From UHGV virus genome UHGV-0166527: a stretch of DNA of 13,507 nt. One strand, given 5' to 3'. This DNA is from a virus. Of this stretch, positions 50-13,507 are shown in pieces (the first letter of the stretch is position 1; every line of letters begins with the position of its first letter). Below the pieces are notes generated by a model. It worked only from the letters and a program-made list of their open reading frames with translations, did no database searches and was not told the DNA's origin. The position numbers and the translations under genes are program-made.

Positions 50-2794
50 TCAAATCGCGTTCAGGTCTTTCTTATTCAACCATGCTTCCAGAGCGGCAAC
101 ACTGTGTGTAATTTCTTCGTGTGGGAGGGGGGCAGATAATGGTTGCTGCTCCAGTTGCGCGCATAGCTGGCTGGCGCTACGCATTCCCAGACTCGCGCAG
201 CTGCTTTTTAGCTGGTGCGCGGCACGTTTAATTTTTTCGCCGTCCTGCCTGGCGCGGGCTGCGTCTATTTCATCGAGAAGTGGCAGGGCATGTTGTTTAA
301 ATAATGTCAGCCATTCGCGAATACTCTCCGTCCCCATTAACTGAGCATCTTCATGGAGTTGCGATACATCCAGCGATTGATCTTTATTGGTTTGCAGTTG
401 GAGATAGTGCGCCAGTAACTGACCGAGCACTTCACGCGGCACTGGTTTAGGGATAATCCCGCGAAAGAGCGAACTGGTTCGCTGGCGCAGCGTTTCGTCG
501 ATGACATGGGCGCTAAAGCCAATCAAAACCAGCGACGGATATTGCTGTACCAGTTGTCGGGCAAGGGTAATGCCGTCGATATCCGGCAGATCAAAATCCA
601 CCAGTGCGGCAGCAAATGGTTCACTATTTTGCAGCGTTTCTATCGCCTGCGCGGCATTGCCAACAGCCACGACCTGCGCACCACTGGTGTTTAGCATCTC
701 AACGGTAATTCGCTGGGTTAGCGGGTTATCTTCAATTAACAGCAAACGTAAACCGTCCAGACGTACCGCCTGATTGACTGTTTTTGGCACGGGGGCAGTG
801 GCAACACGTAACGGCAAGCGTAAACAAAAACAGCTTCCAGCCCCCGGCGTGCTGGTGGCGCTCAGTTCGCCGCCCATCGCCTGAGCCAGACTGCTACTGA
901 TAGTCAGCCCCAGCCCGGTGCCGCCGCGTTTGCCGCTTACCTGAACAAATGGCTGGAATATTTCTGCCAGTTTCGCGGGATCAATACCGCAGCCGCTGTC
1001 TTCCACTTCGACCAACCATTGCTCGCCATCAGTGCGACTGCGCAGGACGATCTGCCCCTCGTCAGTGAAACGCACGGCGTTGCTCAACAAGTTGGTAATA
1101 ACCTGGCGAATACGTCGCGGATCGCCCATTAACGCGCTCGGTACATCGTTGGCAATTGCCGTTGCCAGGCGAATCGGGCGACCTTTCACCCGCCCGCTCA
1201 TTAATTGCAGGGTACTTTCCAGCAGCGGGCGTGGTTCAAAGGGTTCATCGCTGACCGAAACATTTTTGCCCCCCGCTTCGATAGCCGAATAATCGAGGAT
1301 ATCGTTAAGGATGGTCAGCAGCGATTCGCCGGAGTCGGTAATTGCCCGCAAATCATCACGCTGGGCGTTAAGTGCGGGGTTATCTGCCAGCAGTTGCGCG
1401 GTGCCGAGAATACCGTACAGCGGTGTGCGGATCTCATGGCTCATTGCCGCCAGAAACGCAGATTTTGCCTGGCTGGCTTTTTCGGCTTCCGCACGAGCCT
1501 GTCGATGTTCTACCACCAGTTCCTGTAATTCAGCCGTGCGCGCTTTTACTTGTGCCGCCAGCTGTTCGCGCTGGCGATTCAGCGCATGAACGCTGCTGCG
1601 AAACGCATCCATCAGCCGCCCGATAGTATCCAGCTCCCGCACGCCAGCGGTTTCCGGGAAAGGGGAGTCGATATCACCGTCCAGCAAGCGTTGCAGCGCC
1701 TGCGTTTGTTCAGCAAGTGGACGTGTGACAGAGCGATAAACCACGCGCCAGAGGATCAGAATCAGTGCGCAAAGTGAAACCATCCCCAGCAATACCAGGC
1801 TGTATTGCCCGCGTGCGCTGGCTTTTTCCAGATGCGCCAGTCCATGTTGATTACGCAGCTCAATGGTGTCGACCAGCTGACTGACTTCGCTACTAAACTG
1901 CGCAAACTGGGCGATGTTATTTTGGGCGAGAGTGTGCAGGTGATTGCTGATTTCACTGTCCTGCTGATACAGCGCCAGCAAATCGCTATATTGGCTAACG
2001 GTAGTTAACGTTGTTGCGACCTGAGCACGAACTCCCGGATCTTCAATGCGTATTTGCCGACGTTGCAGAATTTTCACCGCATTATTGAGCTGCTTTTCCA
2101 GCGTTGGCGCATTTTTCTGGATCTGTTCCAGCCCCAGATTCATCACCATTTGCTGCACCCGCAGAGCACTAAGGCGCAGTTCATTCATCTGGTTAACATA
2201 CTCAAGATCGATATCAATCAGCCTGTCGAGTGCGCTTTCGGCGGCCTGACGCTGATGTTGTTCGATCAAATCGTAAATCCCGGCCTGGGTAGCTCCGGCG
2301 GAGGTGGCCGCATTATTCGCCTGACCTTGCGCCAGGCGTGCGATTTCATCGGCGGCGGCGACTATCTGCTGACTGAGTTGCTGTTGTTGCTGGCGCAGTT
2401 GCAAACGCTGCCCCACCAGCTCCCCTTGCTGACGTAACGAACGGGAGATCTCCTGCTCCTGTTGTTCAATAGCGGTGGTATCAAAACCTTGTTCCCGTAA
2501 TGCTTGCAGCAACGCATTAATCTTCAGGCTTTGTGCGGTGAGCATTCGCCCCTGCGCCTGCCACATCTTTTCGTTATCGGCACTGGTCAGGTTCTGCGCG
2601 GCGAAAAGTTCCCAGGCGCTGGCTTCGCTCAACTGGCGCGCCATATTCATGGTAGGAATCAATGCCTGAGTGTTGTCTTTTTCCACCTGGCTGATAAAGC
2701 GCAGGTTGTACCATCCCACCAGGGTACTGGTCAGGGTTAACAGCGCCATCAGGGCAAAGCCCATCCAGAGCCTTCGGGTCAGGGTTAAATTCAC
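50..2794 (-). CDS. torS: Hybrid sensor histidine kinase TorS (trimethylamine N-oxide two-component sensor), complete 914 aa
   Basis: 914-aa ORF with N-terminal TM segment, HAMP-like region, histidine-kinase H-box (MSHEIRTPL), ATPase motifs (GTGLGL), receiver domain ([10 protein letters not shown]) and C-terminal HPt region; length and N-terminus [19 protein letters not shown] match my recollection of E. coli TorS. Confidence 0.93.
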
Positions 2795-2888: not shown

Positions 2889-3962
2889 TCATTTGTCGAT
2901 TTCAATTTTGTCCCATTCCCGTCCACGGCTGTCCCTATACCGCGCCGCCATTGAATCTGATTTATGCCCGAGAAGACGTTGAGCAAACTTATCGCCAATC
3001 TGGTTCCGGTATAGCCTCGCTGACAGGCTACGCAGTTCATGGAATGTTGGCGGGTTTCCATCAAATGAGAGTCCAGATGCATTTCTCGCCTTTGTAAAAT
3101 ACTTTGATACTGTTTTCGGGGAAAGCGGATCGTGATGCTTTGATGCGATTATAGTTTCACTGCTGCTGGCCTCCCTGCATTTTTGTAGTGTATCAGCCAA
3201 TGAGATATTGAGCGCGTCAATCGTTAGCGTCAGCGGAATGGCGAGCTTAGCCCCTGTTTTACTCTGCTCAATGTGAAGATGGTTGTCGTTTATGTCTGAC
3301 CATTTCATTCTGCACAAATCGCCCACTCTCTGCCCTGTAACGACAGCCAAATCCATTGCCAGCCTCAGCCAGATTGGGAGAGGTTCGGCTGCATGGTAAA
3401 TCGCGACATACTCATTAGCTGTCAGCCTTGAGCGCCTTACTTCTGACTTTGCTGTGCGGGTTGCTGTTACCGGATTCGTTTCCACATGCCCCTCGGCTAT
3501 TGCCTCACGAAAAACGTCAACAAGGGTTGACCTGATTAATTTTGCGGAAGCTGCTTTACCTTCTGCTACGTAGGTGTTTAGCATTGCTGCCACCTCTTTC
3601 GTTGATATGTCATTGAGCGGTTTGTCCGGCAATTTTCTTCGAATCGCCCTGATTTTGCTGGCGTAGTCGAGTAGAGTTTTCGGTCTGATACCCCTCTCGC
3701 TGAGGATTGTTTCATATCGGTCAAGCCACGCATGAAGAGTGATTGCGTCAGCGCCTTTAATCCTGTCTATCAGTGACTCACGCCTGTTCTCGGATAGCAA
3801 CTCAATATTGGCCTGAATAGCCTCTGAAACTGCTATCCTTCTGTCTCTGCCTAATCCGAACTCTTTACCCGTCCTTGGGTCCCTGTAGCAGTAATATCCA
3901 TTGTTTCTTATATAAAGGTTAGGGGGTAAATCCCGGCGCTCATGACTTCGCCTTCTTCCCAT
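2889..3962 (-). CDS. int: Tyrosine integrase, lambda Int family (357 aa)
   Basis: N-terminus MGRRRSHERRDLPPNLYIRNNGYYCYRDPRTGKEFGLGRDRRIA and C-terminus RGREWDKIEI closely match recalled lambda Int; catalytic motifs TGQRVGDL, HELRSL, LLGHKSD, ARYRD present. Confidence 0.95.
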   Translation of the reverse strand: MGRRRSHERRDLPPNLYIRNNGYYCYRDPRTGKEFGLGRDRRIAVSEAIQANIELLSENRRESLIDRIKGADAITLHAWLDRYETILSERGIRPKTLLDYASKIRAIRRKLPDKPLNDISTKEVAAMLNTYVAEGKAASAKLIRSTLVDVFREAIAEGHVETNPVTATRTAKSEVRRSRLTANEYVAIYHAAEPLPIWLRLAMDLAVVTGQRVGDLCRMKWSDINDNHLHIEQSKTGAKLAIPLTLTIDALNISLADTLQKCREASSSETIIASKHHDPLSPKTVSKYFTKARNASGLSFDGNPPTFHELRSLSARLYRNQIGDKFAQRLLGHKSDSMAARYRDSRGREWDKIEIDK

Positions 3963-10494: not shown

Positions 10495-10516
10495 AATTCC
10501 TCCGTCATTGGCAGGT

Positions 10517-10540
10517 GTTAAAGCCGCGCTTGGCAGTTAC
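10517..10540. repeat. Copy 2 of the 23-24 bp intergenic element (GTTAAAGCCGCGCTTGGCAGTTAC) overlapping the stop of the 82-aa gene
   Basis: Near-identical to 10057..10080. Confidence 0.6.
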
Positions 10541-10785
10541 TCTATTTCTTCTTCGAATGATTTTATTAGTCGGTCAATAACATCATCTGTTTCAATATCA
10601 TTTCCGTCTGATTGCTTTAATACGTCTATTGATTCTACGGCGGTAAACTCCATCGCTGTGAGAAACTCGACAATTGCACACCCAACGACATATCGTTCTT
10701 CATCTGTACGACATGAGATAAAAGAGCATTTAATTGCTGTTATTACTTTTTGTTTAAGCTCTGCAGGGTAATCAGTTTTTATCAT
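10537..10785 (-). CDS. Hypothetical small acidic protein (82 aa)
   Basis: ATG at 10783-10785 preceded by GGAG 6 nt upstream; acidic C-terminus (DGNDIETDDVIDRLIKSFEEEIE). Confidence 0.6.
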   Translation of the reverse strand: MIKTDYPAELKQKVITAIKCSFISCRTDEERYVVGCAIVEFLTAMEFTAVESIDVLKQSDGNDIETDDVIDRLIKSFEEEIE

Positions 10786-10798
10786 CGTTTACTCCGTC

Positions 10799-10826
10799 AA
10801 AAAAACTGCCCTCACATTGGAGGGCA
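10799..10826 (-). terminator. Intrinsic terminator (minus strand): stem TGCCCTC / loop CAATGT / GAGGGCA followed by seven U
   Basis: 7-bp GC-rich stem; the minus-strand U-tract corresponds to + 10799-10805 (AAAAAAA); lies just upstream of the 82-aa gene RBS. Confidence 0.65.
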
Positions 10827-10942
10827 AAGAAGATTTCCAATAATCAGAACAAGTCGGCTCCTGTTTAGTTACGAGCGACATTGCTCCGTGTATTCACTCG
10901 TTGGAATGAATACACAGTGCAGTGTTTATTCTGTTGTTTATG

Positions 10943-10970
10943 CCAAAAATAAAGGCCGACTATGCGGCCT
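10943..10970 (-). terminator. Intrinsic terminator (minus strand): stem AGGCCG / loop CATAGT / CGGCCT followed by TTATTTTTGG; the loop contains the stop codon of the 207-aa gene
   Basis: 6-bp GC-rich stem plus U-rich tract read on the minus strand; tL1-like position after the N operon proximal genes. Confidence 0.6.
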
Positions 10971-11583
10971 CGGAAGGAAGTCCAATCATCTTATTCAAAT
11001 CTTCTACCCGTAAAGCAGGAAGTGCTGTACTTGCTTTGTCTGCTTCTTTTGGTAGCAATTCTTTGCTTTCAGGCCAAACTTCAATAAGTCGCTTAACTGT
11101 TGTGACTGAGTTCAAAGCAGCCCATACATTTGATTCGATATCCTTTTTCTTGGCTTCAAGTTTTTGTTGCAATGCGCAGATTTCATCAAACCTTTTTGTT
11201 ATTTCGTGTTCTGCGTCAAACATGCATTTATCTTTGGTCGGAGTAGGGAGCAATATATCTTCGCCGTTGCCGTCTTTCCCATATGAATGCCATCCAACCC
11301 TTCTGCCAGATACAGTCAGATAAATCGAAGTAGAACGAACATCGCATGAGTAAAATGAACATCCCATCTTTTCAATTTCTTCACTTATAGCTACTAACCT
11401 GGATGATAACTGATCCACTTCATCAGTTTTCTTTTTACCGCCAAACGCAACAACCCTGGCGTCAAGTGCAAGCTGGTTCTTTAACCTTGTTACTTCTTCA
11501 AGTTCAGTGAAAACCCCAGACTTAATTAAAGCGTTACGAGCGATTTTCTCTTTCATTCTCGTAGTTAAGCGGATTGATGACAT
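10960..11583 (-). CDS. Hypothetical protein (207 aa) immediately downstream of N, upstream of the first terminator
   Basis: ATG at 11581-11583 (MSSIRLTTRMKEKIARNAL...) preceded by GAGAGGAA; soluble, no recognised family; occupies the ral/sieB accessory slot. Confidence 0.65.
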   Translation of the reverse strand: MSSIRLTTRMKEKIARNALIKSGVFTELEEVTRLKNQLALDARVVAFGGKKKTDEVDQLSSRLVAISEEIEKMGCSFYSCDVRSTSIYLTVSGRRVGWHSYGKDGNGEDILLPTPTKDKCMFDAEHEITKRFDEICALQQKLEAKKKDIESNVWAALNSVTTVKRLIEVWPESKELLPKEADKASTALPALRVEDLNKMIGLPSEAA

Positions 11584-11594
11584 ATTAATTCCTC

Positions 11595-11921
11595 TCAAAT
11601 AAGTGGTTTGCTGCCTAATTTCATTTTCTGGCGACCAACACAAGTCACACCCATTTCACTGCGTGGCTTGCTGTACCATGTGCGCTGATTCTTGCGTTCA
11701 ATACGTTGCAGGTTGCTTTCAATCTGTTCGTGGTATTCAGCCAGCACCGTAAGGTCTATCGGATTCAGTGCGCTTTCTACTCGTGATTTCGGTTTGCGAT
11801 TCAGCGAGAGAATAGGGCGGTTAACTGGCTTTGCGCTTACCCCAACCAACAGGGGATTTGCTGCTTTCCATTGAGCCTGTTTCTCTGCGCGACGTTCGCG
11901 GCGGCGTGTTTGTGCATCCAT
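11595..11921 (-). CDS. N: Antitermination protein N (lambda-type, 108 aa)
   Basis: MDAQTRRRERRAEKQAQWKAANPLLVGVSAKPVNRPILSLNRKPKSRVESALNPIDLTVLAEYH... matches recalled lambda N including the arginine-rich motif; AGGAGA SD upstream of ATG 11919-11921. Confidence 0.9.
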   Translation of the reverse strand: MDAQTRRRERRAEKQAQWKAANPLLVGVSAKPVNRPILSLNRKPKSRVESALNPIDLTVLAEYHEQIESNLQRIERKNQRTWYSKPRSEMGVTCVGRQKMKLGSKPLI

Positions 11922-12078: not shown

Positions 12079-12109
12079 GCCCTTCTTCAGGGCTTAATTT
12101 TTAAGAGCC
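12079..12109 (-). promoter_or_regulatory. nutL site: boxA-like (GGCTCTTAA, + 12101-12109) and boxB hairpin (GCCCTGAAGAAGGGC, + 12079-12093)
   Basis: boxB is identical to recalled lambda nutL boxB when read on the minus strand; boxA differs from CGCTCTTAA by one base. Confidence 0.75.

Positions 12110-12272: not shown

Positions 12273-13507
<1,235 letters not shown>

Follow-up and report, generated by a model that had tools for sequence, protein, structure and literature searches.

The interval between the 207-aa and 82-aa genes of virus genome UHGV-0166527 is very probably where a lambda-family prophage carries its PreS (LPR1) sRNA gene, preceded by one additional terminator. Within the window, by which we mean the whole 13,507-nt stretch of DNA analysed here, positions 10963-10800 are ~97% identical to lambda 33925-34087, the non-coding ral-ea10 region, which is lambda's only match to this interval. 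Homology to lambda and published primers together place an 88-nt PreS gene, GAGCAAUGUCGCUCG...GAGGGCAGUUUUUUU, at 10799..10886 on the minus strand (-). The cloning and in-vitro-transcription primers P810, P1107 and P1103 set +1 at GAGCAATGTCG (GAGCAATGTCGCTCG) and have the RNA end at the U tract (Table S5 of bioRxiv 10.1101/2024.10.31.621285), ends that map to window 10886->10799. The window copy is homologous to lambda lpr1 (GAGCAAUGUCG...GAGGGCGAUUUUUU) and identical to it over nucleotides 1-69, seed included; the two differ at one nucleotide in the loop of the terminator hairpin T2 and at two where its stem begins, and the window copy has one extra U. The gene also lies in the setting expected for PreS, in the pL operon downstream of N and on the same (minus) strand. 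Judged by its sequence, the conserved 'spacer' between the two terminators is an sRNA gene.

PreS is covered by no Rfam family. A search of the whole window at gathering thresholds returned no Rfam match, and at E <= 10 the region 10500-11200 gave only chance-level similarities (SraG, rliE and RyhB terminator-like; E >= 0.4). Both PreS and tL2a have already been described, and what this HK022-like prophage carries is an almost identical copy, not a new kind of element. The value of the result thus lies mainly in correct annotation, which would assign the prophage a host-manipulating, sliding-clamp-raising sRNA at a locus that otherwise reads as 'two terminators'. Its incremental points are that the upstream hairpin, T1, is optional and occurs in two versions, with the lambda copy degenerate; that a hairpin at the PreS 5' end is kept by structure; and that no promoter is conserved.

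In lambda, LPR1, since renamed PreS, lies between ea10 and ral (Silverman, Nashef, Bruner, Noy, Melamed; bioRxiv 10.1101/2024.10.31.621285). That preprint, which combines RIL-seq, northern blotting and genetics, reports that the RNA is strongly enriched on Hfq, that it runs as bands of ~88 and ~68 nt, the shorter being a processed form, and that its 3' end is the early-left terminator tL2a. According to the same authors, expression is seen in the lytic cycle and not in lysogens; PreS opens the dnaN ribosome-binding site, raising translation of the sliding clamp, and represses alaS, both effects being backed by compensatory mutations; and phage lacking the seed replicates its DNA less and has a lower spontaneous yield, an effect that depends on Hfq (bioRxiv 10.1101/2024.10.31.621285).

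The window supplies the early-left context for such an RNA. A lambda-type antiterminator N gene is found at 11595..11921 (-) (PF11438 N36, E = 1.5e-26). Upstream of it, the nutL region (12079-12108, (-)) contains a boxB, GCCCUGAAGAAGGGC, at 12079..12093 (-), which was read directly and is identical to the boxB of lambda nutL, preceded by a boxA-like CUCUUAA. The probable pL promoter, recognised by sequence, would lie near 12177-12149 (-), with TTTACA and TAATTT separated by a 17-nt spacer. The 207-aa ORF (10960..11583, (-)) begins 11 nt past N and is a full-length member of the Nmad5 family (PF18757, E = 8.9e-70), named for 'nucleotide modification associated domain 5'; it occupies the position of lambda sieB, orf28 and ral. 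Downstream of the interval, the 82-aa gene (10537..10785, (-)) is an ORF for which the family search gave no match, and its ribosome-binding site, GGAG, and ATG lie within 14 nt of the T2 U tract.

The original prediction had described two hairpin-plus-U-tract terminators on the minus strand between these genes, about 130 bp apart, and both are present. Their stem starts are separated by 144 nt, close enough to the predicted spacing, with ~118 nt between the terminators themselves. The downstream element, T2 (10799..10827, (-)), consists of the hairpin UUGCCCUC-CAAUGU-GAGGGCAG at 10827-10806 followed by U7 (10805-10799). Its stem of 8 pairs, 5 of them G-C, folds at -12.7 kcal/mol (z -3.44), a stability equalled by none of 200 shuffles. 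At the sequence level the window copy therefore carries the Rho-independent terminator and U tail of PreS. From its fold and its homology to lambda, T2 is the orthologue of tL2a, that is, the PreS terminator together with a putative Hfq-binding tail; the equivalent element is annotated 'putative terminator' in the HK97 record. Polymerase modified by N should ignore T2.

The proposal that the pair stands in place of lambda tL1 does not hold. As noted above, the sole lambda match is the ral-ea10 region, with T2 as tL2a; T1 has no homology to tL1, and the 207-aa gene intervenes between N and T1. It is also very improbable that the two elements are tandem terminators which solely divide the pL operon into N-independent and N-dependent segments, with an inert spacer between them. 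Such a model would accord with the canonical anatomy of both sites, with the position of T1 as the first site after N on this strand and with the label given to the T2 equivalent by the HK97 annotators, who also called it a terminator. However, the supposed spacer is the most conserved part of the interval, with 95-100% identity across 331 phage records and 2233 E. coli genomes; the interval folds far better than its shuffles (-66.4 kcal/mol for 10985-10790, z = -5.1, a large share of it from a further hairpin, H); and the lambda counterpart yields an Hfq-bound sRNA with targets validated genetically, as the PreS preprint describes. What survives of the original prediction is thus its terminator anatomy and the stop codon in the T1 loop, whereas the tL1 replacement falls away and the PreS sRNA and hairpin H had been overlooked.

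The seed of the PreS RNA, UGUUCUGAUUAUUGGAA, lies at 10835..10851 (-), corresponds to the published lpr1 seed-deletion segment and is identical to that of lambda. The sites of the M1 (dnaN) and M2 (alaS) mutations fall within the seed or immediately beside it. With positions -48..-11 of E. coli K-12 dnaN, the seed is predicted to form a duplex of -31.9 kcal/mol, which none of 2000 shuffled seeds equalled (-12.5 +/- 2.8 kcal/mol), and introducing the published M1 mutation lowers the predicted dnaN duplex to -20.5. Shuffles of the full-length PreS-dnaN duplex gave similar energies, and the seed-only test was used instead. By these calculations, the window PreS keeps the predicted dnaN pairing, upstream of the ribosome-binding site. 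The function of PreS in this prophage would be carried over from lambda by analogy.

For comparison across related phages, we used a 24-nt seed pattern to collect about 120 loci from IMG/VR and added the window. The pattern fixed PreS nucleotides 27-50, so that seed conservation in this set is partly imposed; pattern-free BLAST searches gave at least 95% identity in nearly all PreS copies. We found the block in 331 phage records, with Stx1, Stx2, HK97, HK022 and Salmonella phages among them. Of 5426 complete E. coli genomes, 2233 contain it, often in Shiga-toxin prophages, and a single genome can have as many as six copies. Among the 12 E. coli matches listed, none has an annotated feature under the PreS match. 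Within PreS, the copies of this set differ only at nucleotide 20, in the T2 loop, where the T2 stem begins and in the length of the U tail (5-8), and the near-identity of the copies leaves almost no covariation bearing on the PreS fold.

Two sets of matches were set aside. In E. coli AF57 (L149, NZ_OZ546943.1 765051-765101), the match covers PreS nucleotides 37-87 only, 50 nt from an IS3-family transposase gene and with a DUF2528 (ea10-like) gene downstream; we rejected it as a PreS variant and read it as probably an IS-truncated copy. Exact copies of the seed were also found in assemblies of Pseudomonas, Shewanella, Pseudoxanthomonas, Neobacillus, Kitasatospora and others (L122-L142). These matches lie on ~48.4-48.5 kb contigs or on tiny low-coverage ones and look like lambda DNA contamination of the assemblies, and we infer no wider host range from them.

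The PreS block remains constant in sequence while both of its flanks change, with at least eight upstream joints. Its 3' limit is the T2 U tract in nearly all related loci, beyond which several unrelated genes are found, each with a ribosome-binding site within ~15 nt. The 5' limit varies stepwise. Some loci share the entire Nmad5-like gene; in others homology sets in where the T1 stem starts, within its loop (as in the ral type, lambda included) or in an A/C-rich linker. Many loci begin right at hairpin H, with the upstream stop codon 35-46 nt before PreS +1, and in one class, which carries an alternative hairpin, homology begins at about +1. The constant unit is thus a hairpin, PreS and T2, with T1 optional, and such a unit of H, PreS and T2 with no promoter sharpens the question of how a terminator-ended sRNA arises from an antiterminated operon.

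Abrupt homology edges and many different neighbours, together with the HK542 GenBank record, in which the block edge is labelled 'boundary sequence 4', would suit a recombination 'boundary' or linker kept by lambdoid homologous exchange, the RNA being incidental. We consider such a role improbable as the main one, as it leaves the terminator and U-tail architecture, the seed complementarity to dnaN and the phenotypes of the lambda seed deletion unexplained. The two roles are in any case compatible, since a useful sRNA can double as a crossover point.

Conservation of the block could also reflect a small protein, made when read-through transcripts are translated from a 30-codon ORF, MSLVTKQEPTCSDYWKSSLPSNVRAVFLTE, at 10792-10881 (-), whose ATG at 10881 is PreS nucleotide 6, which would make PreS a dual-function RNA. 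The frame is open through T2 in all variants seen, and of the five substitutions that fall elsewhere than in the T2 loop, three affect a third codon position and leave the amino acid unchanged. That proportion is not significant, though, and by our own estimate ~27 open codons arise by chance about once in four. Furthermore, the GGAG stands just 2 nt from the ATG, is partly paired in H and is missing in the alternative-hairpin class; the C-terminus shifts with the length of the U tract and with the downstream module; and transcripts ending at T2 would lack a stop codon. Translation of this frame is accordingly most unlikely, and we retain the reading of the block as an sRNA gene.

The hairpin that abuts the gene, H (CUGUGUAUUCAUUC...GAGUGAAUACACGG; 10886..10917, (-)), comprises a 14-bp stem closed by the loop CAAC and folds at -18.8 kcal/mol (z -5.06). 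Its final paired base is PreS nucleotide +1. Hairpin H is found in nearly all related loci, and a minority class has a hairpin of other sequence at the same position (AUAGCAGA...UCUGCUAU; -14.9 kcal/mol, z -3.66); a hairpin at the PreS 5' end is therefore kept by structure although its sequence is replaced. We regard H as a candidate 5'-end processing determinant or a candidate protective stem for the upstream mRNA. Between T1 and H runs the unstructured A/C-rich linker, CAUAAACAACAGAAUAAACACU (AAACAACAGAAUAAACAC; 10921..10942, (-)), which contains ARN-like triplets, the kind bound by the distal face of Hfq. The linker is present in lambda with one difference and is missing from many other PreS loci.

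A promoter scan found no sigma-70-like site upstream of PreS +1, -35/-10 candidates inspected by eye were unconvincing, and sequence beyond about -30 is unconserved across locus classes. Because nothing is conserved above about -30 and the promoter scan was empty, PreS most likely lacks a dedicated promoter. Cleavage of the N-antiterminated pL transcript would then probably release it, the 3' base of H marking its 5' end; alternatively, a weak promoter of its own may set that end.

In the upstream element, T1 (GAGGCCG / CAUAGU / CGGCCUU; 10952..10971, (-)), a stem of 7 pairs, 5 of them G-C, is capped by a 6-nt loop and followed by UAUUUUU within the U tract UAUUUUUGG (10943..10951, (-)), a run of U broken by A. 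A G+C-rich stem, a short loop and a U-rich tract directly 3' make up intrinsic-terminator anatomy, and in a scan of the window T1 is the earliest minus-strand terminator-like site past nutL and N. As had been predicted, the six-base loop encloses the TAG stop (10962-10960) of the 207-aa gene. The end of that gene, GAG GCC GCA TAG, makes up the 5' arm and the loop, the 5' arm corresponding to its last three codons (Glu-Ala-Ala). The folding-energy check proposed for both hairpins came out in their favour, clearly for T2 and less so for T1, which folds at -11.0 kcal/mol (z -2.05) and is matched in stability by 10 of 200 shuffles. By itself the stability of T1 only marginally exceeds chance, and the window shows no general enrichment of terminator-like patterns (20 observed against 14.4 +/- 3.9 expected). 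What makes T1 credible is that a U tract follows it, that it stands where a gene ends and that it recurs among related phages.

Across the 120 related IMG/VR loci, the T1 block is absent from 58. The version found in the window (v1, loop CAUAGU) occurs in 23 loci, 14 of them with a stable hairpin and 9 with a weakened one, taking a fold of <= -8 kcal/mol as stable; a second version, AAGGCUGCC-UGAU-GGUGGCCUU (v2), follows ral and occurs in 39 (17 stable, 22 weakened). Stable versions are thus present in 31 of the 120 loci, and among the 62 loci with a T1 block the stem is weak or broken in 31. Stable copies fold at about -11 to -13 kcal/mol for v1 and at -13.9 to -15.2 for v2; the stable v2 hairpin of -13.9 kcal/mol has z = -2.42 and holds the UGA stop of ral in its loop. 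The two versions share the pattern AGGC[C/U]GC...AU[A/G]GU[C/G]GGCCUU and, on that sequence, are evidently homologous. The 3' arm and U tract of T1 (GGCCTTTATTTTTGG) are shared with lambda, where they follow ral. The lambda counterpart is degenerate: two G-to-A changes leave it at -4.3 kcal/mol, which would explain the absence of a recognised terminator there.

The Nmad5-like gene and lambda ral are unrelated, and both end Ala-Ala-stop (window 10960-10971, lambda L001 1088-1099). The same hairpin 5' arm encodes both ends, which places the mosaic joint inside the last codons of the upstream gene; the T1 5' arm thus provides the final codons and the stop for whichever gene adjoins. Version v1 is also found 3' of at least three other genes, whose stop codons precede the hairpin by 9-15 nt. 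Given these earlier stops and the many broken stems, the loop need not contain a stop codon. T1 is an optional, moderately conserved accessory in which the loop stop codon is common and no requirement, and we describe it as a separate, dispensable putative intrinsic terminator, part of the mosaic joint upstream of PreS.

It may be a weak terminator or none, given the marginal z and the interrupted U tract. A role for T1 as a stabiliser of the upstream mRNA's 3' end, or its persistence as a decaying, functionless relic of the mosaic joint, is a reading that we hold to be doubtful while giving it real weight. It draws on the z of -2.05, the broken U tract and the -4.3 kcal/mol of the lambda version, as well as on the weak or broken stems in half of the loci with the block and on the 58 further loci without it. 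Against it, v1 and v2 both retain a stable stem and a U tract, and one copy (L111) shows a compensatory C-G to A-U change in the stem. We therefore keep the designation of T1 as a putative terminator.

Taken in order, the elements suggest the following course. Transcription from pL would cross nutL, N and the Nmad5-like gene. Polymerase without N modification would stop at T1, so that PreS synthesis would need N, and T1 could in this way bound the N-independent segment of the pL operon, as the original prediction had it. N-modified polymerase would continue through the A/C-rich linker, hairpin H and the 88-nt PreS, whose 5' end could be produced by endonucleolytic processing at the 3' base of H, a route favoured because no promoter is conserved upstream. 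The 3' end would be the T2 hairpin and U tail, which may also act as the Hfq-binding module; on N-modified transcripts this end might come from residual termination, or from trimming back to the hairpin with Hfq guarding the U tail. Mature PreS would then pair with host mRNAs through its single-stranded seed (10851-10835) and, as in lambda, could open the dnaN ribosome-binding site and repress alaS, both aiding phage DNA replication in the lytic cycle.

Termination is in general less efficient where a stop codon lies very close to the terminator stem. If a ribosome kept close behind the polymerase and ended translation at the TAG, it could hinder T1 folding, and translation-modulated termination at T1, also part of the original prediction, is possible. 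The stop codon lies in the loop of two related hairpin versions, as TAG of the Nmad5-like gene here and as TGA of ral in lambda relatives. That T1, hairpin H and PreS form one regulated unit, with T1 as a translation-sensitive gate and H setting the 5' end, is a further step that we think unlikely; if true, synthesis of the PreS precursor would depend on N and also on the upstream gene being translated.

Set beside lambda, the window has PreS at the same position in the pL operon, on the same strand, with the same terminator stem and U tail and the same 14-bp hairpin 5' of +1. The two loci differ in the upstream gene, which is Nmad5-like in the window and ral in lambda; in the downstream gene, the 82-aa ORF being unrelated to lambda ea10; and in the terminator-like hairpin ahead of PreS, intact in the window (-11 kcal/mol) and degenerate in lambda (-4.3). 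Both lambda tL1 and T1 are the first terminator-like site met from pL, and the same gating role is possible. They have no sequence similarity, however, and T1 follows the second gene whereas tL1 comes directly after N; T1 is also absent from about half of the PreS loci.

Hfq-dependent sRNAs derived from 3' UTRs, such as CpxQ and SroC, are cut from longer transcripts and end at the terminator of the operon or gene. PreS resembles them in that its 3' end is an intrinsic terminator and Hfq site, its 5' end is apparently processed and its ~68-nt form has the seed. Unlike them, it lies between genes of a polycistronic antiterminated phage operon and not at an mRNA end. Since PreS is inside an operon meant to continue, T2 must act on such transcripts or the 3' end must be trimmed.

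AgvB, AsxR, Pas and StxS, from prophages of pathogenic E. coli, are likewise phage-borne, Hfq-associated, terminator-ended RNAs that retune host genes; they lie in the late (Q / PR') region, unlike PreS. A CA-rich AACAACA after T1 had raised the idea of an AgvB, AsxR or Pas identity, which we discarded as these sRNAs belong to the late region near Q, holin or stx; Rfam models for AgvB and AsxR exist and have no match in the window. The position of PreS in Sp5 is not represented in the EHEC Hfq-CRAC sRNA list (Tree 2014), where EcOnc20 maps upstream of N and EcOnc22, of about 85 nt, to the tail region. Literature searches on tL2a, 'boundary sequence' and lambda ribosome profiling yielded nothing usable.

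Several further features of the window were recorded. A repressor with HTH and Peptidase_S24 domains is encoded at 12674-13306, and the leftward operator repeats, on inspection by eye, do not appear lambda-like. At the left end, the 914-aa ORF at 50-2794 (-) is the host TorS (Pfam TorS_sensor, HisKA, HATPase, Response_reg and Hpt), which means that the window spans a chromosome-prophage junction. An integrase-sized ORF at 2889-3962 (-) adjoins torS; the junction corresponds to an attachment region of the HK022 type, and HK022 itself is one of the phages that match best. Two further pairs of terminator-like hairpins were seen on the minus strand, at 4681-4660 with 4649-4630 and at 4260-4242 with 4206-4191. 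The first pair equals T1 and T2 in strength, and these extra pairs might flank other short transcripts.
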